Source: an uncultured bacterium
GTDB lineage: Bacteria; Patescibacteriota; Minisyncoccia; Moranbacterales; UBA2206
DNA: 64,000 nt
Assembly: GCA_903831805.1 (NCBI GenBank)
Contig: CAIKZD010000017.1
Span: forward strand, 12,358-76,357
Reading direction: 5' to 3'
Shown: positions 7,568 through 56,143 of the stretch, in pieces
Layout of the letters: the number at the start of each line of letters is the position of its first letter
How positions within the stretch are numbered: the first letter of the stretch is position 1
Program-made: the position numbers and the translations under genes
Notes under the pieces: model-generated
Told to the model about the DNA's origin: nothing
Databases searched by the model: none
The model's input: the letters and a program-made list of their open reading frames with translations, nothing else

Positions 7568-8584
7568 CTAGGATAAAAATTTTTCCACTTCTTCTTCAAT
7601 TTTTTGATAATAATCTAGCCATACGATACGCGCATCTTTTTTAAACCACGTCAGCTGCCGTTTGGCATAATCTTTTTCGGCTAGGTATATTTTTTCCAAT
7701 AAGTCTTCTTCGGAAGTAATATGCCCGCGTAAAAATTGTGGAATAAGTTTGTAGCTCAAACCGAAGCTTTCCATTTTTTTCCAGCTGAGGCCAGTAGCAT
7801 GTAGTTTTTGCACTTCGTCTATCATCCCACCGGCAAATCTTTTTTGGACATTTGACTTGATTCTTTCGTGCAAGACTTCTTTTTCTCGCGCGATGCCGAT
7901 CTGGAGGAAGTCGTGCTGCGCTTGGCGTGGGAGTTCAACTCCCATTAGGGGAGTTGAACTCCCTGTTTTTATTTTTGGCACTTTGCCTATGGCTTTGCAG
8001 ATTTCAATCGCTCGAATCAGTCGCACTGGATTTTTGGCGTCGATAGTTTTGGCACGCTCGGGGTCTAATTTTTCGAGCATAGTGAAAAGTTCTTCTGTGG
8101 TTTTGTTACGTAGCATGCTACGTAACACCGGATCAGGCGCGACTTCGGGATAACTGACATTATCGACGATGGCTTTGATCCAAAAACCGGTCCCACCGGC
8201 GATGATGGGGACTTTTCCGCGCGATAGAATTTCGGCGATAACTTTGTCGGCATATTTTTTAAATTTGGCGGCGTTATATTCAGTCTTGGGACTGACGATG
8301 TCGATGCCATAATGGGGGATTCCTTCTGAAAGAAAGACGTTGCCCCCTCTGTCCCGACGAGTACATCGGGACGTCTCCCCCGAGTACAGGGGAGAAGGAA
8401 TTGGGTCAGACTCAATTTTTCCAGTGCCGATGTCCATGCCGCGATAAATCTGGCGGGAATCCGCGCTCAAAACTTCGCCGTTAAATTTTTTGGCCAGTGA
8501 AATAGCGGCCGAAGATTTGCCACTAGCAGTCGGACCGAGGATGACGATTATTTTAGGAGAAAGCCTCTTTTTTTTAGTGCTCAT
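7568..8584 (-). CDS. miaA: tRNA dimethylallyltransferase
   Basis: IVILGPTASGKSSAAISLAKKF...SADSRQIYRGMDIGTGK. Start set to the in-frame Met before the P-loop. Confidence 0.85.
   Translation of the reverse strand: MSTKKKRLSPKIIVILGPTASGKSSAAISLAKKFNGEVLSADSRQIYRGMDIGTGKIESDPIPSPLYSGETSRCTRRDRGGNVFLSEGIPHYGIDIVSPKTEYNAAKFKKYADKVIAEILSRGKVPIIAGGTGFWIKAIVDNVSYPEVAPDPVLRSMLRNKTTEELFTMLEKLDPERAKTIDAKNPVRLIRAIEICKAIGKVPKIKTGSSTPLMGVELPRQAQHDFLQIGIAREKEVLHERIKSNVQKRFAGGMIDEVQKLHATGLSWKKMESFGLSYKLIPQFLRGHITSEEDLLEKIYLAEKDYAKRQLTWFKKDARIVWLDYYQKIEEEVEKFLS
7929..7965. repeat. perfect 15-bp inverted repeat inside the miaA CDS
   Basis: GGGAGTTCAACTCCC-ATTAG-GGGAGTTGAACTCCC, coding for ...TPLMGVELP.... 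Confidence 0.6.
8343..8394. repeat. AGTA-loop hairpin module inserted in frame in miaA
   Basis: CCCTCTGTCCCGACGAGTACATCGGGACGTCTCCCCCGAGTACAGGGGAG. Encodes the non-conserved peptide ...SGETSRCTRRDRGG.... Confidence 0.7.
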
Positions 8585-8691
8585 AAGATAGTGTAATAGT
8601 TTAGGTAAAACTAGCAAAAAAATTGATAAAGAGCAAGGAATTGTAGTCTTGACCAGGTGGCGATCTGGTTTGATTTAAAAAATATGAAATA

Positions 8692-8720
8692 TTGTACGGC
8701 ATTTTTTTAAATGCTATAAT
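8692..8720 (+). promoter_or_regulatory. sigma70-like promoter (TTGTAC-17-TATAAT)
   Basis: Hexamers with 17-nt spacing, upstream of the delta-60 repeat gene. Confidence 0.45.
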
Positions 8721-8783
8721 AATGACGTGTAAAATGTCTAACAGAAAAATATAAAAATTTAAATTAGCAAATAAAATATTGAG

Positions 8784-11700
8784 ATGAGAAGAAAATATTT
8801 TTTAAGAATAACAGTAATTATAATCGTTGTTTTTTTACTGGCAAAAGGCCATGTAGCGCACGCGGCTGATCGGTTCAGTGCTTTGACAATCGGGGGATCG
8901 AACAACGATACTATAAACTCTATTGTCCAAACCTCAGATGGCGGTTACGCGGCGGCGGGATATACAGCCAGTTATGGCGCGGGAGGCAACGATGTTTATG
9001 TTGTCAAATTCACATCTGCTGGCGCCCTGGACACGTCTTTCGGCACCGGCGGCACACTGACGCTTGGCGGAGCTGGTGATGATAGCGCAAATTCTATTGT
9101 TCAAACCTCTGAGGGTGGCTATATTGTGGCGGGATATACAAATAGCTATGGCGCGGGAAACTATGATTTATACATAATTAAACTTACTTCCGCAGGCGCC
9201 CTGGACACGTCTTTCGGCACCGGTGGCACACTGACGCTTGGCGGAGCCGGTAATGAGCAAGCGCGTTCTATTATTCAAACGACTGATGGTGGTTATGCAT
9301 TGGCGGGATATTCAGACAGTTATGGCGCTGGAAGCACAGATGTTTATATTGTTAAATTCACATCTGTTGGCGCCCTGGACACATCTTTCGGCACCAATGG
9401 AACGCGGACGGCTGGCGGAAATCTAGATGATGCGGCAACTTCTATTGTTCAAACAACTGACGGCGGTTACGCTATCGCTGGGAATACATATAGTTATGGC
9501 GCGGGAGGTAGTGATTTCTATATAATAAAATTCACATCTGTTGGCGCCCTGGACACATCTTTCGGCACCGGTGGCACACGGACGGTTGGCGGAGCCAGCA
9601 CTGATATTGCAAAGTCAATCATCCAAACAACCGATGGCGGTTACGCGGCAGCGGGATATACAAATAGCTATGGCGCGGGAGACTATGATGCTTATGTTGT
9701 CAAATTCACATCCGCTGGCGATCTGGATACATCTTTCGGCACCGGCGGCACGCGGACGATTGGCGGCACGGCCTATGATAGCGCAGCTTCCATCATTCAA
9801 ACAACTGACGGTGGCTACGCTTTTGCTGGGGATACAACCAGTTATGGTACATTGAGTAGTAATTTTTACATTGCCAAGCTTACTTCCAGTGGTGCTTTGA
9901 ACACGTCTTTCGGCACCGGTGGAACGTTGACGGTCAGTAGTTTCGGCAGTACTGGTGATAATGCAAATTCCATCATTCAAACAACTGATGGCGGCTATGC
10001 GGTGGCGGGGGATCCTGTGGTTATGCACTATAGTGATGGGTTTATTATCAAACTCGATACTGCGGGTTCTATGGGCAGCAGTTGCAGTAATGCGACTGGC
10101 TATGGCGGCGTGCTTGGTAGCGGTGGTGCAATAAATTCCGGCGGCACGCTTAGTAATGGCGGCACCCTTGGTAGCGGTGGTGGTGCAATAGGTTCCGGTG
10201 GCACAATTTCAGAGAAATGCAGTGTTTCTATTTCCCTGCCGACTGTTGCAACCGAAGAAGCTACTGATATTGCTGCTGATGCTGCTACTGCTAACGCTAA
10301 CTTGAGCGATACTGGCGGGGAAAATCCAAATCGTCTCATTCAATACGGCACCACGAGTGGCGTTTATACCAACTCTTGCGCCGCCGGCACTGGCGATGTG
10401 GGGGATTTTTCTTGCGCGATGACTAGTCTCTCTCCCAGTACGACCTATTATGTCAGGGCCGAAGCGATAAATTTCGCTGGAACATCTTATGGTACAGAGA
10501 TGAATTTCACGACCACAGACATCGCTCAGCTGGTGGCTCCTGTCGTAGATTCAGATTCCTCTAATCCATTTGATGATTGTCAGCCGAAGACTTTAAAAGC
10601 TAAAGCAGTTTCATCTTCAGAAATTAAATTGAAGTGGAAGGATAATTGCAGCGGGGAAGACGGCTATATTATTGAAAGAGAAACAGCAAAAGGAAAATTT
10701 AAAAAGATAGATTCGGTCGGCGAGAATAAGAATTCCTATACAGATAAAGGCCTACTCTCTAAAAAGAAATACACTTATAGAGTCAAGGCATATGAAGGAC
10801 ATGACAAAACTGGCCACACTAATAAATCGAGTGCCACAACTTTGGCCGTGATGACACCGACTAAGACTTCCCGGACGCATGTTTCCGAAACGACTCCAGC
10901 TTCAACTGATAATCCTAGTGAAGCAACCGTGACTACGAGTGTTGATACGCTTAATGTTCCAGGCAATAGTAATGGCGAGTCTTTATCGGTGGACAAAATT
11001 AATAAAAACCCAGAGAAAAAAGATTCTATCATAGCGCAAGAAGGGAAACTCTTGGGCGATTTTATCGAAAGTCCTGCCGGTCAAAAAACTTCCGCCGCGG
11101 TTACTGGTCTGGGTATCCTTGTGGGCGCGATTGTGGCGGCGGCGACTAGCGCTATTCCGCTCATAGCATCGTCTTCAGGTGGCGCTCCATTTGCTAGTGG
11201 ATTACCAAAACGCTTCAGTTTTTTCGGAATTATGACTCCCAGAGAAAAGAAAATAAATTGGGGCGTGGTGTTTGATATCGACACTCATCGACCGATCGCT
11301 GGCGCTTTAGTTTCTATACTTAATGCTGAGGAAAGAGTGGTTGATTCAATGACTACTAATATGGAGGGAAAATTCGGGTTCCTAGCGGCTAAAGGAGGGT
11401 ATACCTTCAGGATTTCCAAAAAAGATTACGCACTGTTCACTGAAAAGAATACGGATGATTTTTATGGAAAAATTTATGATGGAAAAATTTTCACAATTGA
11501 AAATGATGATGTAGCTGAGACTAATATCGCCATAAGGTCGACTAAAATTGATTGGCGTGAACTTTCCAAAAGAAAGTTGGCAATATACAAAATGGCGCTT
11601 TCAATTATAGGCAGGCATTCATTGTTGGTTTTATTCTACGGCTGTTTCGTCATTTCAGCCACTATATTGTACGTTTCTCCTTCAACATTTAATGCCTTCA

Positions 11701-12014
11701 CGGTGGCTGTGTATGTAGTTATAATAGCGCACAATCTGTTTTTTAAAGTGAAAAAATATGGATTGATAACCGATCAACGGGGCGAGCCACTGCCGTTTAC
11801 CATGGTCAGTATCTACGCTGGAGAACAGCATGACAGGCGCGCAGCTTTCGCGATCAGTGATATTTTGGGACGCTATTTTGTGTTGGCTAAAGATGATAAA
11901 TATCTGATGAAGATGCAGGGTCAAACGAGAGGAGGAGCATCTTTCGGAAAATCGTTTGATATTAATGTCAGGGACGGAGTCTTTAGGCGGGATGTAGTCA
12001 TTAAGGGAGAATGA
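8784..12014 (+). CDS. large secreted/membrane-anchored surface protein: about 9 delta-60-type repeats (DTSFGTGG, ~58-aa period), fibronectin-III-like domain, Gly-rich linker, C-terminal TM segments and carboxypeptidase-regulatory-like domains
   Basis: Signal peptide MRRKYFLRITVIIIVVFLLA. Periodic SFGTGGT...GGYxxAGYTxSYGAG...YxxKLTSxGALDT repeats, then KLKWKDNCSGEDGYIIERE...YTYRVKAYEG (FN3) and C-terminal hydrophobic segments. Confidence 0.7.
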   Translation: MRRKYFLRITVIIIVVFLLAKGHVAHAADRFSALTIGGSNNDTINSIVQTSDGGYAAAGYTASYGAGGNDVYVVKFTSAGALDTSFGTGGTLTLGGAGDDSANSIVQTSEGGYIVAGYTNSYGAGNYDLYIIKLTSAGALDTSFGTGGTLTLGGAGNEQARSIIQTTDGGYALAGYSDSYGAGSTDVYIVKFTSVGALDTSFGTNGTRTAGGNLDDAATSIVQTTDGGYAIAGNTYSYGAGGSDFYIIKFTSVGALDTSFGTGGTRTVGGASTDIAKSIIQTTDGGYAAAGYTNSYGAGDYDAYVVKFTSAGDLDTSFGTGGTRTIGGTAYDSAASIIQTTDGGYAFAGDTTSYGTLSSNFYIAKLTSSGALNTSFGTGGTLTVSSFGSTGDNANSIIQTTDGGYAVAGDPVVMHYSDGFIIKLDTAGSMGSSCSNATGYGGVLGSGGAINSGGTLSNGGTLGSGGGAIGSGGTISEKCSVSISLPTVATEEATDIAADAATANANLSDTGGENPNRLIQYGTTSGVYTNSCAAGTGDVGDFSCAMTSLSPSTTYYVRAEAINFAGTSYGTEMNFTTTDIAQLVAPVVDSDSSNPFDDCQPKTLKAKAVSSSEIKLKWKDNCSGEDGYIIERETAKGKFKKIDSVGENKNSYTDKGLLSKKKYTYRVKAYEGHDKTGHTNKSSATTLAVMTPTKTSRTHVSETTPASTDNPSEATVTTSVDTLNVPGNSNGESLSVDKINKNPEKKDSIIAQEGKLLGDFIESPAGQKTSAAVTGLGILVGAIVAAATSAIPLIASSSGGAPFASGLPKRFSFFGIMTPREKKINWGVVFDIDTHRPIAGALVSILNAEERVVDSMTTNMEGKFGFLAAKGGYTFRISKKDYALFTEKNTDDFYGKIYDGKIFTIENDDVAETNIAIRSTKIDWRELSKRKLAIYKMALSIIGRHSLLVLFYGCFVISATILYVSPSTFNAFTVAVYVVIIAHNLFFKVKKYGLITDQRGEPLPFTMVSIYAGEQHDRRAAFAISDILGRYFVLAKDDKYLMKMQGQTRGGASFGKSFDINVRDGVFRRDVVIKGE

Positions 12015-12025
12015 TAGATAATTAT

Positions 12026-13492
12026 TTATGCAAGTCTTCCTTCTAAATTCCAAGTATTGACGCGTGTTATCCTAACTTCAAGAAGCTTGCCAGCCAACTT
12101 TTTTTGGCTGGTTTTAATTTTTACATTTTTAAGGGTGCGTGTGTGTCCGAAATATTTACCAGCCCTACCATTGTCTACTAATACGTCAAAAGTTTTGCCG
12201 AGATATTGCTGATTGTTTTTGAGCGCCGACGCGGCTAGAATTTCATTTAAATATTTCTCGCGGCGAACTTTTTCTTCTTTTTTGATGTTATCCTTCAATT
12301 TGAACGCAGCTGTGCCTGGGCGCGGGGAGAATTGGCCAAAATATGACATATCATATTGCACTCGACGCATCACGCCGGCGGTTTTTTCCAGCTGGACTTT
12401 AGTTTCGCCGGGGAAACCGACAATGATGTCGGACGACAATGCAAAAATCTTCTCTGGTTTATTTTTAGCAAAACTATTTTTAATTTTTTCAATCAGCTGT
12501 AAATAATGCGCGCGGGTATAGTGGCGGTTCATATTTTTCAAAATTGTGTCGTCGCCCGACTGGATAGGCAAGTGTACTGCTTCGCAAACTTTTTCCAAGC
12601 TAGTGATGGTTTCAATCAGTTCAGCTGTCATATCTTTTGGGTGCGGCGTCATAAAACGGATCCAAAAATCTCCCGGAATGGCATTGATGGTTTTGAGGAG
12701 GTCAGAAAAATTCACAACATCACCCTCTCTGTCTCGAGTACGAGACATCTCTCCCGAGTACAGGAGAGATGGAAACATTTTGCCCCCTCTCCCGTACTCG
12801 GGAGAGGGCTGGGGAGAGGGCAATGGTTCGTAGCTGTTGACGTTCTGTCCAAGGAGCGTTATTTCTTTAACGCCTGATTTGATGAGCTTTTTAATTTCTT
12901 GCAAGATTTCTTCGGCCGGGCGTGAAACTTCTCGTCCGCGGGCGTAAGGCACGACGCAGTATGAGCAGAAGTTGTTGCAGCCGGTCATGATGGGGACATA
13001 AGCTTGGGCAGAGTTTGCGTATTTTGGAGTGACGGTTAAATAGCAATTGTCATTCTGAGCGGAGCATAGCGGAGTCGAAGAATCTGCTTTGTGGTGTAAC
13101 TGGCGATGATTATTAGTAGATTCTTCGACTTCGTCCGAGTACGGACTTCGCTCAGAATGACATAATAAAAAATTTTCAAGTTCTTGCATGAAGTCTTTGA
13201 TTTCACAAAACAAAGCCACCTTATTTTTCAATTTTTCCTGTATATCTTTCCGATTGGCCAGGCAGCCGGTCAGCACTATTTTTGTTTGCGGATTATTTTT
13301 CCAAAGATTATGGATCTGTCCGTACGCTCGGTCTTCAGCCATTTTTCTGACACCGCAAGTGTTGAAAATTACGATATTCGCTTTCGTAATGTCTTTGGCT
13401 GGCTGGATTTTTTGCGCTTCCAAAAACCCGGCCATCCGCTCTGAATCGCTGACATTCATCTGGCAGCCGAAGGTTTTGATGAAATATTGCAT
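12026..13492 (-). CDS. miaB: MiaB-family radical-SAM methylthiotransferase (tRNA-i6A37 methylthiotransferase-like), carrying two in-frame repeat insertions
   Basis: MQYFIKTFGCQMNVSDSE (MTTase N domain), CNNFCSYCVVPYARG radical-SAM motif and a C-terminal TRAM domain. Adjacent to miaA. Confidence 0.75.
   Translation of the reverse strand: MQYFIKTFGCQMNVSDSERMAGFLEAQKIQPAKDITKANIVIFNTCGVRKMAEDRAYGQIHNLWKNNPQTKIVLTGCLANRKDIQEKLKNKVALFCEIKDFMQELENFLLCHSERSPYSDEVEESTNNHRQLHHKADSSTPLCSAQNDNCYLTVTPKYANSAQAYVPIMTGCNNFCSYCVVPYARGREVSRPAEEILQEIKKLIKSGVKEITLLGQNVNSYEPLPSPQPSPEYGRGGKMFPSLLYSGEMSRTRDREGDVVNFSDLLKTINAIPGDFWIRFMTPHPKDMTAELIETITSLEKVCEAVHLPIQSGDDTILKNMNRHYTRAHYLQLIEKIKNSFAKNKPEKIFALSSDIIVGFPGETKVQLEKTAGVMRRVQYDMSYFGQFSPRPGTAAFKLKDNIKKEEKVRREKYLNEILAASALKNNQQYLGKTFDVLVDNGRAGKYFGHTRTLKNVKIKTSQKKLAGKLLEVRITRVNTWNLEGRLA
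12722..12830. repeat. compound AGTA/TACT-loop hairpin module in frame in the MiaB-family CDS
   Basis: GTCTCGAGTACGAGAC, TCTCTCCCGAGTACAGGAGAGA and CCCTCTCCCGTACTCGGGAGAGGG. Encodes ...EPLPSPQPSPEYGRGGKMFPSLLYSGEMSRTRDREG.... Confidence 0.7.
13048..13162. repeat. MITE-like element family 1 (TIR TGTCATTCTGAGCGGAGC...GCTCAGAATGACA), copy inside the MiaB-family CDS with the reading frame preserved
   Basis: Terminal inverted repeats match the intergenic copies. The ORF is continuous through it (...LLCHSERSPYSDEVEESTNNHRQLHHKADSSTPLCSAQNDNCY...) in the linker between the MTTase and radical-SAM domains. Confidence 0.7.
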
Positions 13493-13547
13493 GAAAACGC
13501 TGTAGAGACGCCCCAACGGGGCGTCTCTACGTTGTTAAATGTTTAAT

Positions 13548-17696: not shown

Positions 17697-17703
17697 CTTC
17701 TTA

Positions 17704-17745: not shown

Positions 17746-17775
17746 TGCGTGGTGACTTTTATTCAATTAAAGAAA

Positions 17776-18168
17776 ATGAAAGTTTATAATAAAAATTTTG
17801 ATGAATGGAACGTTTTAAAAAAGGAATTACATAAAAGAAAAAATATTCCCTTCTTTCACGAGCGTGAAATATGGTGGTGCGCACTAGGTTTGAATGTAGG
17901 GTTTGAGGAAGATGGAAAAAATGATAATTTTGAGAGACCGATTTTGATTATGCGTGTGTTTAGCCATGAAGTTTTGTGGGTGTTGCCTATGACGAGCCAA
18001 GATAGAACTGGAGAATATTATCACCAGTTCAGATATCGCGGAGAAAAATATTCAATAATTATTTCCCAATTAAAACTCATAAGCAGTCGAAGATTACTCA
18101 GAAAAATTAGAAAGTTTTCTGAAAGGGATTTTCTTGAGGTGAAAAATAAGATCAAAAATCTTTTATAA
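17776..18168 (+). CDS. MazF/PemK-like endoribonuclease-fold protein (orphan toxin-like)
   Basis: EIWWCALGLNVGFEEDGK...ERPILIM...VLPMTSQ...SIIISQLKLISSRRL aligns with the MazF/EndoA pattern (DVYxADL..GSEQGGxRPVLV...ITSQ...QIRTIDKxRL). Confidence 0.5.
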   Translation: MKVYNKNFDEWNVLKKELHKRKNIPFFHEREIWWCALGLNVGFEEDGKNDNFERPILIMRVFSHEVLWVLPMTSQDRTGEYYHQFRYRGEKYSIIISQLKLISSRRLLRKIRKFSERDFLEVKNKIKNLL

Positions 18169-25096: not shown

Positions 25097-25196
25097 TTGT
25101 GTGAAGCGGTTCAACCGCTAACGGTAAAAATCTGAACCACTGATTTTCACGTGAGACCACGTGATTTCACTGAAGGAAAAATCATCATAGCAGTAT

Positions 25197-25353
25197 TGTC
25201 ATTCTGAGCGAAGCCTGTAATCAGGCGCAGTCGAAGAATCTGCTCGGTGTAACTACTAGTTTACCTATAAAGCACAAGTCTCGAGGTAACCACTGGCAGA
25301 TCCTTCGACTGCGTTCATCGCCTCATCGGCGACTCACTCCGCTCAGGATGACA
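25197..25353. repeat. MITE-like element family 1 copy (intergenic)
   Basis: TGTCATTCTGAGCGAAGC...GTCGAAGAATCTGC ... GCAGATCCTTCGACTGCG...GCTCAGGATGACA. Confidence 0.75.
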
Positions 25354-26026: not shown

Positions 26027-26146
26027 AATGTAGCGAAGCGTAATGAAGGATCTGCTATGTGTAATAACTAGTTTTACGATAAATCACAAAGCTGGTTGTA
26101 CCCACTGGCAGATCCTTCGTCCGGCTAGCGCCATCCTCAGGATAAC
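26027..26146. repeat. MITE-like element family 1 copy (degenerate, intergenic)
   Basis: TGTCATCCTGAATGTAGCGAAGCG...GCAGATCCTTCGTCCGGC...CTCAGGATAAC. Confidence 0.65.
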
Positions 26147-30376: not shown

Positions 30377-30419
30377 AATTTTCAATAATCAATTTACAAT
30401 TTTCATTCAATAATCAATA
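30377..30419. repeat. 43-bp AT-rich repeat AATTTTCAATAATCAATTTACAATTTTCATTCAATAATCAAT (copy 1)
   Basis: Identical to 63628..63670; extended flanks are similar; lies in the dnaE/rnhB divergent promoter region. Confidence 0.8.
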
Positions 30420-30869
30420 TTTAATATTCAATTTCGTAATTTTTAAATTAAAAAATTTAAGACATTTATTGAAGATTGATTATTGATCATTGGAAATTGG
30501 AGACAATAAAAACTACCCCAGAGAAGTAGCTTTAAATATTACGCATGATGATACAGTATTTTCCATCTTTTTTATTATCCCCTTAATCCGGATTGCTCCA
30601 TGGATGCGGCAGGATGATTATGAATCCAGTATAGCACAGAGTGTTTTCCATAACAAAAAAGAACCTGGCTATAGTTCCAGATCTTTTTTGTTTTCTTTAA
30701 TATACAGGCCTATATTTATTTCCCGCTTATATGATAAGATGGAAACAATAAACGAAAGAACTATAAAAACACAAAGTTTATTATCTCAAAAAACCATGAA
30801 CATGTCAACCCTGTTAAATAAGTGAGTAAAAATGGGGGCTTGAAATTTTGTAGCTATTTAAATAATGTA

Positions 30870-34959: not shown

Positions 34960-35205
34960 TTCGGAAAGAAATCCTTTTTTAAGGAGAGTAGACTCTGACG
35001 GGTTCCGCTTCAGCGGCGGATGAAGGCCCGTAATAGCCGTTTCAGAGGGTTGATTAGTTGAATAGTTTATTAGTTGATTAGGAAAGAAGCCTAATTAACC
35101 AATAAACTAAGTGACTAATTAACTAAATTAAGGTGGTACCGCGATTAAAGTCGCCCTTAAACGTAAGTTTTTGGGTGTTTTTTTATTTTTAATATACACA
35201 ATTAA
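34960..35205 (+). promoter_or_regulatory. T-box riboswitch leader of ileS
   Basis: Canonical T-box sequence AAATTAAGGTGGTACCGCG at 35126..35143, followed by hairpin CCCTTAAAC...GTTTTTGGGTGTTTTTTTATTTTT (terminator). Upstream are a stem-I-like nested hairpin and a long imperfect inverted repeat. Confidence 0.6.
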
Positions 35206-35219
35206 ACATTTAATTTATC

Positions 35220-35367
35220 CGTCATCCTGAGCGGAGTGAGCCCGCTTCAGCGGGGGAACGAAGTCGAAGGATCTACTTACATTACCTCAGGCTTATTGAT
35301 TTATAAAAAAGCCAGTGGTAACGCAAAATAGATTCTTCGACTTCGCTACGCTCCGCTCAGAATGACG
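35220..35367. repeat. MITE-like element family 1 copy, inserted between the ileS T-box terminator and the ileS start codon
   Basis: CGTCATCCTGAGCGGAGTGAGC...GTCGAAGGATCTAC ... TAGATTCTTCGACTTCGCTACGCTCCGCTCAGAATGACG. Confidence 0.75.
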
Positions 35368-35376
35368 ACTTATACT

Positions 35377-38300: not shown

Positions 38301-38439
38301 TAGTTTTGGAAGCTTAATCGCCAAAGAAACTTTGGCGAATAATGTTCTTTTGAAAAGCGAATCAGCGCTAGTGGCTGATTTAGAGAAAGTTTTTGAGCTG
38401 GACGGGGAGAAGGTTAGTGTTGCTATCAAAAAGAAATAA
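35377..38439 (+). CDS. ileS: isoleucyl-tRNA synthetase (long, eukaryote/archaeal-like type)
   Basis: HYGH and KMSKK class I motifs, CP1 editing domain and a C-terminal zinc region. Start moved downstream of the MITE-derived ATG. Confidence 0.9.
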   Translation: MSFRKVESNQKFPEMEMEVLKFWGENKIFEKSLENRKDAKEYSFYDGPPFATGTPHYGHIVASVMKDVVPRYWTMKGYYVERKWGWDCHGLPIENIVEKELGSKKKKDIVEMGVEKFNELCRSKVLTYVDVWEKVVSRMGRWADMKTSYRTMDKDYMESVWWVFKELWDNGLIYEDYRSMHVCPRCETTLSQSEVSEGYKDIKDLSVIAKFELIDEPGTFVLAWTTTPWTLPGNVALAVGEELEYVKVKDLWIPLDKDNIKPLEEGKTPPAVEMKEEYYIIEKNSFEKYKKMFHNAEPNVIEEFKGKNLIGKKYVPLFDFYSKDEKLANHNNGWKIYAGDFVTTEEGTGVVHIAPAFGEDDMRLGKENNLPFVQHVAMDGSFKEELGELAGLNVKPIENPQATDVEIIKYLAKHGTLFHKEKFEHSYPHCWRCDTPLINYATSSWFVAVTKIKDKMLEVAKNINWSPANMKEGRFGNWLEGARDWSISRQRFWASVMPIWVCEECGEQKVFGSVAELEKLSGEKIDDLHKHIVDKVTFPCEKCQKKMKRVPDVLDTWFDSGSMPYAQKHYPFENKERFDKTFPANFIAEGVDQTRAWFYYLHVIASGVKEQEAFQNVIVNGIVLAEDGKKMSKKLQNYPDPMEMFEKYGADSVRHYLMSSPVVAAQNMNFMESEVGEITRGMMRMLWNSYSFFVLYADIDKFEADKNFDPKKLNGLLDRWMVSELHMLIKDFNGHMENYELHKAARLLPKFIDNLSNWYIRRSRKRFWKSENDGDKNEAYQTLYYVLVELSKVMAPFTPFIAEEIWRNLTSGVSEPLRPFGTHPLSTGEGEVASVHLQDFPAADEKLIDEKVNKNMQDLREIITLGLQDRAKNGIKVRQPLKRVILGQKYADVFNETINKIEWSSILIEELNVKGAELGTKTETVMIDTEITPELKLEGAAREIIRHIQQMRKDAGYEVDNRIEVWYDGLKEVFDSFGSLIAKETLANNVLLKSESALVADLEKVFELDGEKVSVAIKKK
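37821..37868. repeat. AGTA-loop hairpin module inserted in frame in ileS
   Basis: CCCCTCCGCCCCTTCGGGACACATCCCCTGAGTACAGGGGAGGGGGAA, encoding SEPLRPFGTHPLSTGEGEV. Confidence 0.7.
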
Positions 38440-43258: not shown

Positions 43259-44452
43259 ATGTTTAAGATATTCGAGAAAAAAAATCAAGCCAGAACTGGA
43301 ATAGTTACGACCAAAAACGGAGAAATCAAGACTCCGTTTTTTATGCCGGATGCCACGCGGGGTTTTGTGAAATTTCTCAATAATGAGGATATTGCAAGAA
43401 CGGGGATTGTACCGATGGTGGTCAACACTTATCATCTCTTTCTTAGTCCTGGGATGGAAATTGTTAAGAAAGCCGGGGGCATCCATAAGTTCATGAATTA
43501 TGATAAGCCTTTGTTGTCCGATAGCGGGGGCTATCAAGTTTTTTCTTTGATCCATAAAAGTCCTAAGATGGGGAAAATTACCGACAACGAAGTTGTTTTC
43601 CGTTCGCCGACCAGCGGAGAAAAGCATATTATTACTCCGGAAAAATCCATCCAAATCCAATTTGATTTGGGCGTGGATATGATGGTGTGCTTTGATGATC
43701 CGCCACCGAACAATTATTCCAAAGCGCGGATTGCGGCCGCGGTCGAACGGACCATTTTTTGGGCGGAGCGGTGCCTCGTTGAATATGAAAAACAAATCAA
43801 AAAAAGAAAAATTACCGCAGGCAATCGGCCGCTCATTTTCGCCGTGGTACAAGGCGGGGAATATGTGGATCTGCGCCAAAGATGTGTTGAGGGTCTGATT
43901 GAAGTGGGCAAAAAAGTGGGAAGAGATTGGGATGGTTTTGGTTTTGGTGCCCGACATGTGAATGAAAAAGGCGTTTTTTTGGAAGAAATCTTGCGGGCCA
44001 CAGCTAGTTTCATTCCTGAAAAAGCTTTGCGCTTCGCTCTCGGAGTGGGTACGCCGGAAGATATTGTCAGATGCTATTTGATGGGCTGGGATATGTTTGA
44101 TTGTGTCATACCGACGCGCGAAGGCCGGCACGGAAGAATATTTCTGCGGATTCGAGGTCAGCAACCCCTCCCCAGCCCTCCCCAACCCCTCTCCAACTCT
44201 CCCCTTAGTAAAGGGGAGAGGGAAAGACACGGCGCGGGGGGATTCTATGAAACAATCAATATGAATAATGGGAAATTTGCGGAGGATTTTTCCAAGATTG
44301 ACGCGCAATGTGATTGCGACCTATGTCGAAATCACACACGGGCTTATGTGCATCATCTTTTCAAGTCTCGCGACCCGCTCGGGATGAGACTGGCCGCAAT
44401 TCATAATTTGAGATTCTATGTGGAGCTGATGGAAGAATTAAAAACGCTATAA
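43259..44452 (+). CDS. tgt: queuine tRNA-ribosyltransferase
   Basis: TPFFMPDATRG and zinc site CDCDLCRNHTRAYVHHL. Confidence 0.9.
   Translation: MFKIFEKKNQARTGIVTTKNGEIKTPFFMPDATRGFVKFLNNEDIARTGIVPMVVNTYHLFLSPGMEIVKKAGGIHKFMNYDKPLLSDSGGYQVFSLIHKSPKMGKITDNEVVFRSPTSGEKHIITPEKSIQIQFDLGVDMMVCFDDPPPNNYSKARIAAAVERTIFWAERCLVEYEKQIKKRKITAGNRPLIFAVVQGGEYVDLRQRCVEGLIEVGKKVGRDWDGFGFGARHVNEKGVFLEEILRATASFIPEKALRFALGVGTPEDIVRCYLMGWDMFDCVIPTREGRHGRIFLRIRGQQPLPSPPQPLSNSPLSKGERERHGAGGFYETINMNNGKFAEDFSKIDAQCDCDLCRNHTRAYVHHLFKSRDPLGMRLAAIHNLRFYVELMEELKTL
44164..44226. repeat. C/T-rich palindromic module inserted in frame in tgt
   Basis: CCCCTCCCCAGCCCTCCCCAACCCCTCTCCAACTCTCCCCTTAGTAAAGGGGAGAGGG, encoding QQPLPSPPQPLSNSPLSKGERER. 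It sits immediately before the zinc-binding region. Confidence 0.65.
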
Positions 44453-44455: not shown

Positions 44456-45799
44456 ATGCTAGAGCTAGATAAGAAGAAGAAGAATTCTGGAAACTTAGAA
44501 TTGCTGGCGCCGGCAGGCAATTTGGAGAAGTTAAAATACGCCATTGCCTATGGCGCGGACGCTGTCTATGCCGGCGTGCCGGATTTTTCTTTGCGGGTGC
44601 GCATTAATAATTTTACGGAAAGTACGCTGTGCGAAGCGGCGGACTATGCACATAAGCATGGAAAAAAAATTTATATTACGCTGAACATTTATGCTCATAA
44701 TTTTCATTTAGAAAAAATCACGGCGCATTTGAAATTTTTGAAAACATTATCAATTGACGGCGTGATCGTGAGCGATCCGGGCATCATCAATTTAGTGAAG
44801 AAATATCTGCCCAAGGTGGACATGCATCTGTCTACGCAGGCCAACGCTACTAATGTTGAGGCGGTGAAATTTTGGCAGCAGATCGGAGTGAAAAGAATTG
44901 TGCTGGCGCGCGAAGTGACCCTGGAAGAAATTCGCGAGATTAGGGCATCCGTGCCAAAAATGGAATTGGAATATTTTATCCACGGGGCGATGTGCATGAG
45001 TTATTCCGGGCGGTGCATCTTGTCCAAATGGATGAGTGGGAAAAGCGCGAATCTGGGGGATTGCACGCAGCCGTGCCGATGGGCGTATCGCCCAAAATTA
45101 CAAATTACAAATGACAAATGTCAAATAAATTCCAAAGTTCAAATTTCAAATTCAAAAAATAATTTAGACGAAGTATTGGCGATGAGCGTTGTAGATAATC
45201 AAGAAAAATTTGAGATGGATTTGGAAGAGGATCGACACGGGACATATTTTTTCAATAGTCGAGATTTGAACCTGGCCGCGCATATTGCCGATTTGGCAGA
45301 GGCAGGTGTGACGAGTTTCAAGATCGAAGGGCGGGCTAAGAGTGTCTATTATGTCTCAGTGGTCACGCGGGCTTATCGCAAAATTATAGCCGCTATTGGG
45401 AAAAAAAGTTTAAATTTAGTAATCAGAGCACAGCAGAAAGAACTGGACACGCTAGTGAATCGAGGCTATACCAACGGCTTTCTTTTGGGGGCGGAACCGG
45501 AGCATAATTTTTCAGGAAAATTGAGCGAGACGCCGTGGAAGTTTTCCGGCGTGGTGGAAGGCAAGAAAAAAATTGGCAAAGAAATTTTTAATATAATTTT
45601 TGCGCACAATGAAATGTATGCGCGGGACGTCATCGAGGCGGTGACACCCAAAGAAAACGTGAAAGTCAAAATTAAAAAAATCTTAAACTACAAACTTGAA
45701 AAAGTAACTGAAATCCATGGCGGACACGCCAACCGATTTTTTGTGCAGTTTGACTTGGTTTTACCGAAAGGTGTGCTTCTGCGGAGGAAAGTAAAGTAA
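44456..45799 (+). CDS. peptidase U32 family protein with in-frame AT-rich repeat insertion
   Basis: LELLAPAGNLEKLKYAIAYGADAVY...GAMCMSYSGRC. Confidence 0.8.
   Translation: MLELDKKKKNSGNLELLAPAGNLEKLKYAIAYGADAVYAGVPDFSLRVRINNFTESTLCEAADYAHKHGKKIYITLNIYAHNFHLEKITAHLKFLKTLSIDGVIVSDPGIINLVKKYLPKVDMHLSTQANATNVEAVKFWQQIGVKRIVLAREVTLEEIREIRASVPKMELEYFIHGAMCMSYSGRCILSKWMSGKSANLGDCTQPCRWAYRPKLQITNDKCQINSKVQISNSKNNLDEVLAMSVVDNQEKFEMDLEEDRHGTYFFNSRDLNLAAHIADLAEAGVTSFKIEGRAKSVYYVSVVTRAYRKIIAAIGKKSLNLVIRAQQKELDTLVNRGYTNGFLLGAEPEHNFSGKLSETPWKFSGVVEGKKKIGKEIFNIIFAHNEMYARDVIEAVTPKENVKVKIKKILNYKLEKVTEIHGGHANRFFVQFDLVLPKGVLLRRKVK
45094..45165. repeat. AT-rich CAAAT/TTCAAA repeat in frame in the U32 peptidase CDS
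   Basis: AAAATTACAAATTACAAATGACAAATGTCAAATAAATTCCAAAGTTCAAATTTCAAATTCAAAAAAT, encoding KLQITNDKCQINSKVQISNSKNN. Shares CAAATGTCAAATAAAT with the intergenic copy at 60146..60212. Confidence 0.6.
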
Positions 45800-46828: not shown

Positions 46829-46883
46829 AAGTTTGTTTATTTTATTCCAGTATAAAGGAAGGCGGGGAAAAGGCAATCTTTTT

Positions 46884-47032
46884 GTCATCCTGAGCGGAGT
46901 GAGTCGCCGATAAGGCGAGGAACGCAGTCGAAGAATCTGCTTTGTGATAATTCTTGTTTTGTGATTTATAGTAAAATTAGCAGCTACACCAGGCAGATTC
47001 TTCGACTTCGCTACGCTCCGCTCAGAATGACA
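46884..47032. repeat. MITE-like element family 1 copy (intergenic)
   Basis: TGTCATCCTGAGCGGAGTGAGTCGCC...GTCGAAGAATCTGC ... GCAGATTCTTCGACTTCGCTACGCTCCGCTCAGAATGACA. Confidence 0.8.
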
Positions 47033-47079
47033 AATCACTACATCGTTTAAGTATAGAGCCAATCTTGTTTGACTTTTTC

Positions 47080-47265
47080 AGCTTTTAGGGATAGGATAAA
47101 GATACTTCTGGGGTTTGGCTCCCGGAGGAAAATTTAAAAAGAGTCTCGACATTTAGTCGGGGAAATCAGGTGGAACCGCGGACTTGATGTAAGTGATTAA
47201 TTACTTACATCGAAGCTCGTCCTGAACATGCGATTTTTTTGTATGTTCTGGACGGGCTTTTTGTT
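47080..47265 (+). promoter_or_regulatory. T-box riboswitch leader of glyQS
   Basis: AAATCAGGTGGAACCGCGG (47163..47181) matches the T-box consensus AANNNGGGTGGNACCGCGG. A downstream hairpin TTGATGTAAGT...ACTTACATCGAAG and a U-run follow; an upstream hairpin loop contains GGC (Gly). Confidence 0.6.
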
Positions 47266-48745: not shown

Positions 48746-48785
48746 TTCTCAAAAGATGTTTAAAGTTGCCATGAGGAGGTAAGTT

Positions 48786-49127: not shown

Positions 49128-49203
49128 CGGGAGGCTGGAAATAGAGAAAGAGACGACGTCTCTTTCTCTATGAAATAAAAAATAATAATTTTATATAAAC
49201 TAT

Positions 49204-50154: not shown

Positions 50155-50159
50155 AATCT

Positions 50160-51428: not shown

Positions 51429-51448
51429 TTAGGGCTTAGAATGAGATT

Positions 51449-52474: not shown

Positions 52475-52479
52475 TTTAT

Positions 52480-53172: not shown

Positions 53173-53178
53173 AAAACT

Positions 53179-54600
53179 ATGAAACAGAAAAATTTTTATA
53201 TAACCACAACCCTGCCCTACGTGAACGCTGATCCGCATATTGGATTTGCCAAGGAAATTGTGGAGGCGGATGTGTTGGCGCGGTATCATCGTGAAAAAGG
53301 CGAGGAAGTGTTTTTCAATACGGGTGTTGACGAGCACGGACTTAAGATTTTGAAAAAAGCCGAGGAGTTGGGAATCGATCCACAAGTCTATTGCGATCAA
53401 AAAGCGCCGGAGTTTGATAAATTAAAATCAGCCTTGAACTTGAGTTATAACAATTTCATCCGTACGACTGATGCGCATCACATTGAAGCGGCGCAAGAAT
53501 TTTGGCGGCGGTGTGAAGAAAATGGTGATATCTACAAAAAAAATTATAGCGTGAAATATTGCGTAGGGTGCGAATTGGAAAAAACCGAGTCGGAACTGGT
53601 GGATGGTCGCTGTCCGCTCCATCCGAATGCGGAGCTGGAGCTGATCGAAGAGGAGAATTATTTTTTCAAGTTTAGCGCCTATCAAGAAAAACTTCTGGCA
53701 CTGTATGAAAAAAATCCAGAGTTTGTTCTGCCAAAGAAAAGATTCAATGAAATCAAAAGTTTTGTCGAGCGAGGACTGGAGGATTTCAGTATCTCGCGGC
53801 TCAAAAGTAAAATGTCATGGGGCATACAAGTGCCAGGGGACGAAGAACATGTGATGTATGTCTGGTTTGATGCATTGGTCAATTACATTTCCGCGCTTGG
53901 CTGGCCTGATGAAAAAGGCAATTTTGAAAAATTTTGGCCAGGTGTGCAAGTGTGCGGCAAGGATAATCTGCGCCAACAATCGGCCATGTGGCAGGCGATG
54001 CTTCTGTCGGCCAAAGTACCAAACTCCAAACAAGTTTTTGTGAATGGTTTCATTACGGTGGACGGGCAAAAAATGAGCAAGTCTATCGGTAATGTCATCT
54101 CGCCATTGGAAATGGTGGAAAAGTTTGGCGTGGACGCGACGCGTTATTTACTTTTGTCTGGAGCTAGTTTTGGTGAAGACTTCGATATCACTTGGGAAAA
54201 AATGACGGAAAAATATAACGCCGATTTGGCGAATGGGTTGGGAAATCTTTTGTCGCGAGTGATTACGTTGGCTGAAAATATTGCGCATGAGCCAAAGGTC
54301 GAACCTTTGGATTCCAAAGGTTCGACCTTTGGCGAGCTGATTGAAAAGTTGGAGTTGGGTAAGGCACTGGAACATATCTGGAAAATAATCGACGAGGATA
54401 ATAAATTTATCGGGGAGAAGAAGCCGTGGGAATTGGTGAAAAATAATCAGGCGGAATTTGAAAAGGTAATGCAGAAATTATTGGATGACTTGAGTTTGAT
54501 TTCTGAATTGCTCGTGCCTTTCATGCCAGACACTGCTGCAAAAATAAAAACAGCTCTGGAAACGAAAAAAGTTGAGCCGTTGTTCCAGAGGATAAAATAA
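53179..54600 (+). CDS. metG: methionyl-tRNA synthetase (short form)
   Basis: YITTTLPYVNADPHIGFA (HIGH-type motif) and KMSKSIGN. Confidence 0.9.
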   Translation: MKQKNFYITTTLPYVNADPHIGFAKEIVEADVLARYHREKGEEVFFNTGVDEHGLKILKKAEELGIDPQVYCDQKAPEFDKLKSALNLSYNNFIRTTDAHHIEAAQEFWRRCEENGDIYKKNYSVKYCVGCELEKTESELVDGRCPLHPNAELELIEEENYFFKFSAYQEKLLALYEKNPEFVLPKKRFNEIKSFVERGLEDFSISRLKSKMSWGIQVPGDEEHVMYVWFDALVNYISALGWPDEKGNFEKFWPGVQVCGKDNLRQQSAMWQAMLLSAKVPNSKQVFVNGFITVDGQKMSKSIGNVISPLEMVEKFGVDATRYLLLSGASFGEDFDITWEKMTEKYNADLANGLGNLLSRVITLAENIAHEPKVEPLDSKGSTFGELIEKLELGKALEHIWKIIDEDNKFIGEKKPWELVKNNQAEFEKVMQKLLDDLSLISELLVPFMPDTAAKIKTALETKKVEPLFQRIK

Positions 54601-54605
54601 AAAAA

Positions 54606-54640
54606 GTCGTTGCGTAATGTCGCGCAACGACTCGAATTGT
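54606..54640 (-). terminator. hairpin terminator (U-run on minus strand; serves the DUF4177 gene, possibly bidirectional)
   Basis: GTCGTTGCG-TAATGT-CGCGCAACGAC flanked by A-run and T-run. Confidence 0.55.
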
Positions 54641-54656
54641 ATGGTTAAGGAATATT

Positions 54657-54851
54657 TCAACCAATACCCAACCAGCTTTTTCCACTACTTGGCGCTATTA
54701 GACGCTTGAAGTAGAATGATCTTTCATGCAGGTGGCTATTGTCGAAGCCGACCAATTCCCAACCTTTTTTTCCGAGGATGTTTAGAATATCCTGAGTTCC
54801 TTCATTGGTTTTTTGTATACTTTGTACAATTTTATATTCCCATTGTTGCAT
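54657..54851 (-). CDS. DUF4177-domain protein
   Basis: MQQWEYKIV...LNILGKKGWELV, the characteristic DUF4177 pattern. Confidence 0.6.
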   Translation of the reverse strand: MQQWEYKIVQSIQKTNEGTQDILNILGKKGWELVGFDNSHLHERSFYFKRLIAPSSGKSWLGIG

Positions 54852-55010
54852 AAGATTACCTCTTAGTTGATGTTTTTTGTTAAATCGCCTTGTTTTTAAA
54901 GAATATAGTAGTATGTATTATCTGATAACATTTGTCAATCTTCATTAAATTTATATAGTGAATATTGCTTAATTTAAGGCAAAAAATGACAAAAGTAGCT
55001 TACATGCATT

Positions 55011-55148
55011 TGTCATTCTGAGCGAAGCGTAGCGAAGTCGAAGAATCTGCTTTGTGTTTCCAGTGGTTATCCTATAAGGGTAAAACTTGTGGTAATGCAA
55101 AGTAGATCCTTCGGCTGCGTCCGAGTACGGACTTCGCTCATGATGACA
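55011..55148. repeat. MITE-like element family 1 copy (intergenic)
   Basis: TGTCATTCTGAGCGAAGCGTAGCGAAGTCGAAGAATCTGC ... GATCCTTCGGCTGCGTCCGAGTACGGACTTCGCTCATGATGACA. The right arm contains the GTCCG-AGTA-CGGAC hairpin. Confidence 0.75.
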
Positions 55149-55255
55149 AGCTTACTAATGACGGGTTTTTACTAAACATTAAATCTAGTGAATTAAATAA
55201 CGAGATTGCCGCGGTCGTTTTGAGTACAAAACTCCCTCGCAATGACAGAATTTCC

Positions 55256-56143
55256 ATGATTGACACCCATGCCCACATTGATGACCACCAATTTGACGCC
55301 GACCGCGAAGAAATGATTGGACGGGCTTTTAGTAGCGGCGTGGAAAAAATCGTGACTATTGGGGCGGGGCTAGGATCGAGTGCGCGGGCGGTGGAGGTGG
55401 CTAAGAACCATGACAATATTTTTGCCGTGGTGGGGTTGCATCCGGAATATTTTATGCAGCATGGAGCGTGGAATGAAGAGCATAAGCAAAAGTTGGAAGA
55501 ACTGGCGCGCGCGGAAAAAGTGGTGGCTATCGGAGAAATTGGATTGGAATATCATTCACATGACGGAGCGCCTATAGCAGATGAACAAAAAGAGTTTCAA
55601 AAAGAAGGTTTTATCTATCAATTAGAATTAGCTAAGAAATTAAAGTTGCCAGTGGTCATCCATTGCCGTGGGGAGCGTGCGCCCGTAGGCGAGAAATATC
55701 GGGAAGTAGGCGAGGCGTATGAAGATGTGCTGGAGATTTTGGAAGATTCTTTCGGAACCCCTCCGTCCCGAGTACGAGACACCTCCCCTGAGTACAGGGG
55801 AGGGGGAGAACTCCCTTTTGTTGTTTTTCATTCTTTCGGCGGACGATTGGATTTTGCCAGGAAAGTCATGGCGCGCGAAAATATCTTTTTTTCTTTCAAT
55901 GGCAATCTGACTTATGCTAAACCGAGTGCGGAAATTTTGGAAGTGGTGAAAATGATTCCACTCGAAAAAATCATGTTGGAAACCGATTGCCCGTATCTTT
56001 CCCCTGTGCCGCACCGGGGGGAACGGAATGAGCCGGCTAATGTGGTTTATGTGCGGGATAAAATTGCAGAAATTAAAGCCATAGATAAAGAAGAAGTGGA
56101 CAAAATCACTTCCCAAAATGCGGTCAAATTTTTCCGTTTTTAG
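55256..56143 (+). CDS. tatD: TatD-family metal-dependent deoxyribonuclease/hydrolase
   Basis: MIDTHAHIDD...GLHPE...GEIGLE...HCR. Confidence 0.85.
   Translation: MIDTHAHIDDHQFDADREEMIGRAFSSGVEKIVTIGAGLGSSARAVEVAKNHDNIFAVVGLHPEYFMQHGAWNEEHKQKLEELARAEKVVAIGEIGLEYHSHDGAPIADEQKEFQKEGFIYQLELAKKLKLPVVIHCRGERAPVGEKYREVGEAYEDVLEILEDSFGTPPSRVRDTSPEYRGGGELPFVVFHSFGGRLDFARKVMARENIFFSFNGNLTYAKPSAEILEVVKMIPLEKIMLETDCPYLSPVPHRGERNEPANVVYVRDKIAEIKAIDKEEVDKITSQNAVKFFRF
55757..55810. repeat. AGTA-loop hairpin module inserted in frame in tatD
   Basis: CCCCTCCGTCCCGAGTACGAGACACCTCCCCTGAGTACAGGGGAGGGGGAG, encoding GTPPSRVRDTSPEYRGGGEL. Confidence 0.7.

Follow-up and report, generated by a model that had tools for sequence, protein, structure and literature searches.

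Introduction

Palindromic repeats inserted in frame are the hallmark of the palindromic elements of Rickettsia (RPEs; Ogata et al. 2000, 2002; PMC10969869, PMC3733652). Repetitive extragenic palindromic (REP) sequences tagged with GTAG or CGTC occur in eight phyla, often as inverted dimers, and the CGTC REPs come without a transposase (Di Nocera et al. 2013, PMC3733652). Some REPs are intragenic, and dimers within genes encode 20-30 amino acids; Opitutus terrae and R. conorii have the highest numbers of intragenic copies, and Thauera has large clusters of repeats (PMC3733652). REPINs are inverted REP doublets that form long hairpins, are mobilized by RAYT transposases, lie outside genes and are reportedly inherited vertically (PMC3116915, PMC3337134). 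Here we analyzed a 64,000-nucleotide (nt) stretch of contig CAIKZD010000017.1 (the window) from an uncultured bacterium of the Moranbacterales (Patescibacteriota, in the Candidate Phyla Radiation, CPR), and found stem-loop units with a conserved GAGTAC loop inside five housekeeping genes, namely miaA, a miaB-type gene, ileS, tgt and tatD. Homologue names likewise place the bacterium in the CPR, near Moranbacteria/Parcubacteria. We consider it likely, with a probability of about 0.8, that these segments are a non-autonomous hairpin-forming repeat of the REP/RPE type, which survives in frame in permissive loops of housekeeping enzymes. The initial annotation of the window had likened them to RPEs, as hairpin DNA that colonizes coding sequence in frame without destroying the genes, and our results agree: the segments are absent from homologues, the TatD insert forms a disordered loop in the structure model, and copies occur elsewhere. 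Since in-frame REP-type insertions are known outside Rickettsia, as in Opitutus terrae and Thauera (PMC3733652), the phenomenon is less exotic than that annotation implied.

Hairpin units in five housekeeping genes

The five open reading frames (ORFs) matched Pfam families that agree with the gene names first given to them:

7568-8617, minus strand: miaA, tRNA isopentenyltransferase; Pfam IPPT, E = 6e-59
12026-13516, minus strand: miaB-type methylthiotransferase gene; Pfam UPF0004, Radical_SAM and TRAM
35362-38439, plus strand: ileS; Pfam tRNA-synt_1, E = 4e-137, with Anticodon_1 also matched
43259-44452, plus strand: tgt; Pfam TGT, E = 5e-109
55220-56143, plus strand: tatD; Pfam TatD_DNase, E = 5e-74; likely true start at the ATG at 55256

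We scanned the window for AGTA or TACT loops with complementary arms and found six stem-GAGTAC-stem units, one each in miaA, ileS, tgt and tatD and two in miaB, with the conserved loop G-AGTA-C, i.e. GAGTAC. The 24-nt pattern YCYCCYGAGTACAGGRGAGRNGGA matched six times at no more than 3 mismatches, compared with 0.00 matches expected from 100 shuffles, and a repeat search of the window placed four of the hairpin-unit copies in one 50-nt family (D7). Perfect hairpins with a stem of at least 8 bp numbered 45 in the window and 2-8 in shuffles. The building block is the stem-GAGTAC-stem hairpin, and the canonical unit reads CCCCTCACCCC-AA-CCCTCTCCCC-TGAGTACA-GGGGAGAGGG; the CPR form has an extra hairpin, TGTC(n)-GAGTAC-(n')GACA, within the 5' arm. 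The units and their hairpins are as follows:

8343-8399, plus strand: miaA element with two hairpins, antisense to the gene, encoding IPSPLYSGETSRCTRRDRGG
8351-8372 and 8374-8395: miaA hairpins, GTCCCGACG-AGTA-CATCGGGAC followed by TCTCCCCCG-AGTA-CAGGGGAGA
12721-12775, plus strand: miaB two-hairpin unit, antisense to the gene, with hairpins at 12730-12747 and 12746-12771; TGTCTCG-AGTA-CGAGACA followed by CATCTCTCCCG-AGTA-CAGGAGAGATG
12782-12823, minus strand: miaB canonical unit in reverse, hairpin at 12785-12808 with a TACT loop; CCCTCTCCCC-AG-CCCTCTCCCG-AGTA-CGGGAGAGGG
37820-37869, plus strand: ileS unit, sense, encoding EPLRPFGTHPLSTGEGEV
37843-37864: intact second hairpin of the ileS unit, CATCCCCTG-AGTA-CAGGGGAGG; the first is degenerate and has no AGTA hairpin
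44163-44226, plus strand: tgt variant of the canonical type, three C-rich 10-11-mers and then the hairpin, encoding QPLPSPPQPLSNSPLSKGERER
44197-44220: tgt hairpin, CTCTCCCCTT-AGTA-AAGGGGAGAG, with the variant TTAGTAAA; the single hairpin at this site
55757-55810, plus strand: tatD two-hairpin unit, sense, encoding TPPSRVRDTSPEYRGGGE, net +54 nt
55780-55805 and about 55765-55780: tatD hairpins, the second with one mismatch

Hairpin repeats were read at each of these sites as the initial annotation had claimed. The stems are perfect or nearly so, but its description of the segments as made of perfect hairpin units goes too far for ileS, where the first unit is degenerate, and for tgt, which has one hairpin only. 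The reverse unit of miaB and its neighbor form a 21-bp REPIN-like inverted doublet and together account for about 32 extra amino acids. Folding prediction, which had been proposed as a check, was in line with the hairpins: relative to shuffles, the DNA of the two-unit miaB insert reached z = -6.2 and -8.3 on its two strands, and four other units gave z values from -2.1 to -3.8, while that of the ileS unit (z = -1.1) was not significant. A likeness of the hairpin CGAGTACGAGAC to the 23S sarcin-ricin loop sequence was rejected as coincidence; the same arm varies freely in other copies. A tRNA/tmRNA scan of the window found none.

The segments are insertions in loops

Judged from alignments, the segments are insertions relative to homologous proteins. 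The peptides had been said to correspond to no conserved region of the enzyme families, and in all five proteins they exceeded the solved homologues. Residues 72-97 of MiaA stand against 2 residues in structure 3d3q (about 24 amino acids extra), residues 231-262 of MiaB against 3 amino acids in structure 7mjv, about 21 amino acids of IleRS against 1 in structure 8c8v, residues 296-331 of Tgt against 4 amino acids in the Z. mobilis TGT structure, and the insert region of TatD (residues 151-201) against about 20 residues in a solved homologue.

The inserts were also absent from relatives, a check that the initial annotation had proposed: from close ones for TatD, MiaB and Tgt, and, for IleRS, from representatives of 50% clusters. 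Relatives of TatD with 72-82% identity have 276-278 amino acids and are without the insert, and comparison of the filled site with an empty one (L124/P0006) shows ...TTTCCGGAACTCAATTTC... replaced by ...TTCGGAAC[50 nt]GAACTCCC..., a net gain of 54 nt. The NVNSY|NF loop of MiaB is empty in the homologues P0123 (L152), P0126, P0140, P0176 and P0183, but is occupied by a single unit in the sister lineage P0122 (L153) and by two in the window. In Tgt, the segment from GRHG to NINNGKF is hypervariable: the 120 Moranbacteria homologues have between 26 and 68 amino acids there. A different repeat, rich in A+T, fills this loop in the nearest relatives (76% identity), and P0255 has a shorter version of the G-rich unit of the window. 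For IleRS, most representatives of 50% clusters have 23-29 amino acids in the corresponding segment, which has 43 in the window. Homologous peptides at the same position of orthologues, raised earlier as the contrary case, are present, but they are patchy and occur only within Moranbacteria.

In the AlphaFold model of TatD, the mean predicted local distance difference test (pLDDT) score was 89.9 and residues 172-183, which correspond to the insert, were the sole segment below 50. The insert is flanked by a helix and a strand of the barrel, and the loop location that had been proposed is borne out for TatD in that it is the only low-confidence loop of an otherwise confident model. In the stretch L126, an internal +1-nt indel is compensated further along.

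Constraint acts on the DNA hairpin

The constraint on these units acts on the DNA hairpin and not on the encoded peptide. The elements of the window are read in three reading frames and both orientations, giving HPLSTGEGE in sense (ileS), TSPEYRGGGE in sense (tatD) and SPLYSGE(T/M)SR in antisense (miaA, miaB); relative to the mRNA, the loop is GAGUAC in ileS, tgt and tatD and GUACUC in miaA and miaB. The miaA gene of L141 carries a unit at the same site as the window, with 86% DNA identity and no gap. Its flanks differ by +1 nt upstream and -1 nt downstream, which switches the frame, and the resulting peptides SLSPVLRGDVPMYSSGQRG and PSPLYSGETSRCTRRDRGG are unrelated. Such a change of frame within common DNA favors a DNA element over a protein loop that is conserved.

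We then anchored 17 CPR copies on the loop and analyzed covariation. GAGTAC was invariant in 17/17, and the arms varied freely yet stayed complementary: 88% of the stem cells were paired versus 54% in shuffles, and 46 stem cells were changed on both sides versus 18. The covariation score was 0.83 compared with 0.22 in shuffles, 0/500 of which reached it, and slid controls gave at most 0.18. In L016, the same GAGTAC loop sits on wholly A+T-rich stems. Between orthologous pairs, the element was 82-95% identical and the flanking coding DNA 72-84%.

These data bear on the explanation that the segments are ordinary lineage-specific low-complexity protein loops that converged on a Pro/Gly/Ser-rich composition. 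The peptides are indeed compositionally biased, and they lie in loops whose length varies in many families. However, the similarity lies at the DNA level and crosses frames and strands, the same 50-nt unit is also found between genes, and hairpin symmetry has no protein-level explanation. We regard this explanation as hardly credible.

Copies in other CPR bacteria and other phyla

Additional copies, which the initial annotation had anticipated, were found within other genes as well as in the spaces between genes. Scanning metagenomes for the form with two hairpins gave 23 loci, 17 of them low-G+C units of the CPR type. Twelve of the 17 CPR copies lie inside long ORFs, none of which is interrupted, and five are intergenic; those in ORFs include a LeuRS site common to L128 and L150 and a gene common to L140 and L147. 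A scan of genome contigs yielded at least 117 stretches with the unit. Among the matches listed, the carriers were mostly Planctomycetota (a Humisphaera metagenome-assembled genome, Tepidisphaeraceae, Phycisphaerales, Gemmataceae, Planctomycetaceae and Anatilimnocola), together with Methylibium, Piscinibacter, another proteobacterium and three other CPR genomes. No copy was found among 2.9 million viral contigs at the stringency used, and so there was no sign of a phage vector.

The cross-phylum consensus equals the canonical unit given above. The CPR units, the second unit of miaB and the tgt unit among them, match it at 85-93% identity, also in the 5' part, which lies outside the search pattern; across phyla, identity is 85-95% over about 40 nt, of which about 18 nt lie outside that pattern. 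The reverse unit of miaB is 89% identical to the Planctomycete consensus, and the tgt unit matches the cross-phylum consensus at 92% identity, with 38 nt aligned and two gaps of 2 nt each. The initial annotation had described an RPE-like phenomenon in a different lineage with a distinct sequence family; the occurrence of such a phenomenon in CPR stands, but the family is not confined to that lineage, being shared with Planctomycetota and Betaproteobacteria.

In high-G+C genomes, the element behaves as an extragenic REP or a REPIN-like doublet. Among the matches listed, 48/106 high-G+C copies had no open frame across them, compared with 75/545 control positions, and an inverted partner lay within 220 nt of 80/122. 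Inverted doublets are also present in L063 and L079; the CPR copies inside genes are mostly single units. In Humisphaera sp. SMAG_U5824 (L007-L123), the canonical unit is the 3' part of an element of about 100 nt, GCG.GTCGCGATATGGCGCGGTTCGCAAGTCGA.GCGTTCGTCCCCTCACCCC..., which was present in at least 80 of the retrieved stretches.

Open frames and probable translation of the inserts

The statement that the ORFs stay open through the element was confirmed: in 5/5 genes the reading frame runs without a break through the elements, six units in all, and the frame used in each element has no stop codon. The net length gained is a multiple of three in each gene. In all five, the matches to Pfam or PDB before and after the insert share one frame, for which the chance with random lengths is (1/3)^5 = 0.004. 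The Tgt, TatD and MiaB proteins recur unchanged in assemblies made independently from different samples (ENA, JGI, Logan and NCBI). The identical Tgt protein, insert included, was found on at least 18 contigs, MiaB on at least 17, and the 295-residue TatD protein (P0001) on 13.

Assemblers can be misled by hairpins and repeats, and chimeric joins at these sites had been named as a possible objection. The finding of identical Tgt, TatD and MiaB proteins with their inserts on 13-18 or more contigs from independent assemblies excludes such a chimera, and the flanks are collinear with orthologues, leaving an assembly or sequencing artefact a negligible probability.

The inserts are probably translated as short disordered surface loops, rich in Pro, Gly, Ser and Glu, that the enzyme would tolerate. 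This follows from the single frame kept in 5/5 genes, from the 12/17 CPR copies within ORFs and from the occurrence of both orientations relative to the mRNA; the compensated indel of L126 and the insert as the sole disordered loop of TatD point the same way. The competing explanation is that the hairpins are intervening sequences, removed from the mRNA by excision or passed over by ribosome hopping, so that the mature protein lacks the insert. Perfect and covarying stems, in an element conserved like coding DNA, show constraint at the nucleic-acid level that would fit such a role, and sequence gives no direct proof of translation. The rRNA genes of CPR bacteria are also reported to contain unusual insertions. 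Yet neither excision nor bypass would need a frame maintained without a stop in every gene, or internal indels compensated so that the frame is preserved, and the two orientations relative to the mRNA make a specific RNA signal implausible. An Rfam search of the window gave 0 matches at the gathering score, and at E <= 1 none overlapped the elements, with only weak T-box leaders elsewhere. In other phyla, the same element is mostly intergenic. We consider intervening sequences very unlikely.

Permissive loops as hot spots

Comparisons across Moranbacteria show the permissive loops to be hot spots, in which other lineages have either this family or unrelated repeats. The TatD insertion site of L127/P0004 is occupied by a different hairpin family, GGGAGTTCAACTCCC..., which indicates that different repeat families strike the same loop. 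In other lineages, repeats rich in A+T (NFQFPISNFQ, GELKIKNKKLKI) are found in the loops of MiaB and Tgt. The linker of the miaB gene in the window contains an unrelated 120-nt long-hairpin repeat (13043-13162), in frame and absent from the sister lineage L153. In a neighbor-joining tree of MiaB, the AGTA unit is patchy and always in the same frame.

The hot spots have to be weighed against the explanation that the hairpins are DNA or RNA structures maintained by the host for a function, such as ribosome pausing, mRNA stability or sites for a protein reading GAGTAC, even if they arrived by insertion. The invariant loop and the compensatory stem changes across lineages would be expected of such structures, and so would the higher conservation of orthologous copies than of the flanking coding sequence, the core conserved across phyla, and one MiaB site occupied across lineages at just 55-77% protein identity. 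Recent insertion from a pool of active copies, however, also explains intact stems. Close relatives lack the element at every site examined, the unrelated repeat families in the same loops speak for tolerance and not for a specific function, and the host genes share no regulatory logic beyond housekeeping. On balance, a maintained function is unlikely, though the most probable of the alternatives that we considered to a repeat surviving in permissive loops.

Other repeats and features of the window

The family found at the TatD site of L127 also occurs within miaA of the window, where 7929-7963 forms a perfect hairpin with a 15-bp stem, GGGAGTTCAACTCCC-ATTAG-GGGAGTTGAACTCCC, encoding SSTPLMGVEL. 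The same gene contains a perfect 24-nt palindrome, TGTTACGTAGCATGCTACGTAACA, at 8104-8127. The long-hairpin repeat of the miaB linker belongs to a second family (family-2) of 120-160 nt, resembling MITEs (miniature transposable elements with inverted repeats), with RNA folds of -55 to -85 kcal/mol, outer arms TTGTCATTCTGAGCGRAGC / GCTCAGAATGACAA and inner arms GTCGAAGAATCTGC / GCAGATTCTTCGAC. Its copies and the remaining AGTA hairpins are as follows:

13043-13162: family-2 copy encoding 40 amino acids (CHSERS...AQNDNC) in the MiaB linker
25192-25353, 26037-26131, 35197-35366, 46878-47035, 55006-55148 and 62013-62133: further family-2 copies
13133-13146, plus strand: family-2 side hairpin with an AGTA loop, GTCCG-AGTA-CGGAC; second copy at 55119-55132
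55217-55232: further AGTA hairpin

An A+T-rich repeat, AATTTCCAATTTC..., lies at 45095-45165 in a Peptidase_U32 ORF and at 31035-31105 in an RNase HII ORF, and also at 30377-30484, 60146-60216 and 63628-63744. It is read in frame as KLQITNDKCQINSKVQISNSKNN and NFQFLISNFQTNPNDQISNDKDF, and peptides of this kind recur in many other Moranbacteria, where they occupy the loops of Tgt, TatD and MiaB. Several different repeat-derived inserts each were also seen in two ORFs of other Moranbacteria, a PEP-utilising-enzyme-like ORF (L058, 5492-7999) and an Fpg/MutM-like ORF (L082, 4793-5812, minus strand), for example CHSELDSESR with SSSPVLGRGVRGEG, and NFQFPISNFQINSKSK with HPHPNSLPSTGERDG.

The MetRS ORF (53179-54600) contains a 43-nt hairpin with a perfect 20-bp stem at 54291-54333, and a similar peptide is found in L127; as a length insertion this candidate was rejected, there being no difference in length from orthologues. 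The MetRS and TatD genes abut or overlap in L125 and L127 and are about 650 nt apart in the window (54600-55256), where the gap holds a family-2 repeat and the AGTA hairpins at 55119-55132 and 55217-55232; this intergenic space appears to have been expanded by repeats. T-box leader-like matches below the Rfam gathering score lie upstream of ileS (34966-35161; 42.7 bits, E = 4.5e-6) and upstream of glyS (47129-47224; E = 0.02), and a family-2 repeat stands between the ileS T-box and the ATG. The ORF at 8784-12014 encodes a 1076-residue DUF5122/fn3/CarboxypepD_reg protein, probably a surface protein, with six tandem 174-nt (58-residue) repeats at 8919-10013, and a MazF/PemK-type toxin ORF (17749-18168, E = 3e-8) lies amid otherwise housekeeping genes.

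Possible mode of spread

The repeat would spread by copy-and-paste through an enzyme supplied in trans, which would recognize the folded single-stranded hairpin, and purifying selection would then purge insertions that break the frame or the fold. Our preferred, though tentative, guess for the mobilizer is a protein of the HUH or RAYT-like kind that works at the replication fork. In the CPR loci, 50 GAGTAC hairpins are on the G-rich strand and 10 on the C-rich strand. The window shows a ratio of 8 to 1 despite the minus-strand position of miaA and miaB, so that orientation follows the replication strand and not the gene. This G-rich-strand bias hints at a mechanism involving single-stranded DNA and would be expected from targeting of the lagging-strand template, a trait of single-stranded-DNA (HUH) transposition (PMC6006769). 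Among the matches listed for high-G+C genomes, there was no orientation bias (28 vs 32).

Several points weigh against a mobile repeat tolerated in protein loops. Translation of the inserts is inferred and not observed. Pfam searches of the approximately 45 ORFs of the 64-kb window revealed no transposase, RAYT or integrase, and tblastn with E. coli RayT as the sole query against 1.16 Mb gave a best E of 1.1. For target-site duplication, a possible GAAC was seen in TatD and none was visible in MiaB. The patchy presence of the MiaB unit at one site and in one frame fits an old insertion with later losses equally well as repeated insertion, and an old insertion would need upkeep of the stem by selection or gene conversion, which a purely selfish neutral model does not give. 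In addition, one Humisphaera genome dominates the genome-contig matches listed, and the taxonomic census extends to those matches.

A further idea, which we offer as a long shot, is that the GAGTAC loop may be the recognition module of a hairpin machinery common to several phyla, either an HUH-like mobilization enzyme or a processing or binding factor, that writes, maintains or reads hairpins in essential CPR genes. If this were true, DNA would have been exchanged directly between episymbiotic CPR cells and their hosts or neighbors, and the near-identical units seen in CPR, Planctomycetota and Betaproteobacteria would be the record of it.

Significance

CPR bacteria are models of genome streamlining, yet at least five essential genes, for tRNA modification, aminoacylation and nuclease functions, carry repeat-derived loops within these 64 kb, and such loops have been colonized repeatedly across Moranbacteria. 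Hiding in coding sequence may be how selfish or structural DNA lasts in streamlined genomes, because there is almost no intergenic space. For annotation, this means that differences in length or in apparent "domains" between CPR orthologues are often repeat insertions, and that peptides such as SPEYRGGG and PLSTGEGE are the read-through of a DNA hairpin and not motifs. The loops also provide a naturally replicated experiment on which enzyme loops accept 15-35 extra residues, and a source of new disordered segments. That CPR, Planctomycetota and Betaproteobacteria have a unit of about 40 nt in common, at 85-95% identity, prompts one to ask how tiny non-autonomous elements pass from phylum to phylum.

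Comparison with known systems

Very small hairpin modules (20-55 nt) with compensatory stem changes and nested insertions are said to occur as dispersed repeats in Nostoc and as GC clusters, double-hairpin elements and "byp" elements in mitochondria. These modules are like the present units in size, and some lie inside coding regions; they belong to different lineages, and no sequence relation to the present units has been shown. In T4 gene 60 and the mitochondrial "byp" elements, the frame is interrupted by a stop or frameshift and bypassed by the ribosome between matched take-off and landing codons, whereas the ORFs of the window are continuous through all six units. DDE-type MITEs have inverted repeats at their termini, a duplicated target site and a parent insertion sequence that shares their ends. 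The ends of the present element, CCCTCTC...GAGAGGG, are inverted, yet they are also hairpin arms, and no insertion sequence was found in the window.

With the tagged REPs, the present family shares short stem-loops (20-40 nt in the REPs), subfamilies that differ by complementary stem changes, inverted dimers and a distribution over several phyla including Planctomycetes. The tagged REPs have a terminal unpaired GTAG or CGTC (TGTC/CCTC) tag and a short tail resembling CCA, whereas the present family has its conserved tetranucleotide in the loop, no GTAG and the tail (C)AA. In the CPR form, the C/TGTC at the foot of hairpin 1 pairs with GACA; CGTC, GGTC or TGTC stands 5' of many Humisphaera copies, 12 nt from the stem. 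The tagged REPs are mainly extragenic, whereas the CPR copies are mainly in genes (12/17 metagenomic copies and 6/6 in the window). Neither GAGTAC nor the insert peptides occur in the supplements of Di Nocera 2013 (PMC3733652), and our literature search found no paper that links CPR/Patescibacteria to REP, MITE or palindromic elements or that contains the core sequence. The family is REPIN-like in its inverted doublets (in 80/122 high-G+C copies among the matches listed, and in miaB), in being non-autonomous and in a strand bias compatible with single-stranded-DNA chemistry. It is unlike REPINs in that no RAYT was found in the searches above, the CPR copies are mostly single units and the family crosses phyla.

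The RPEs resemble the present units in being palindromic, in frame in unrelated housekeeping genes of a small-genome bacterium, compatible with the protein fold and also intergenic. No transposase is known for them, and for the present family none was found in the window. They differ in size, RPE-1 having about 100-150 nt versus 40-57 nt here, and in that each RPE encodes a conserved peptide, whereas the present family is read in several frames and its peptide is not conserved. Size, peptide and Rickettsia host set the units apart from RPE-1 to RPE-10, and the family is further distinguished by its invariant GAGTAC loop, freely covarying stems, CPR host and sharing with Planctomycetota and Betaproteobacteria. 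In-frame insertion of palindromic or REP sequences was thus already known; what is new here is how dense the insertions are in a streamlined CPR genome, together with loops that recur as hot spots and a unit common to several phyla.

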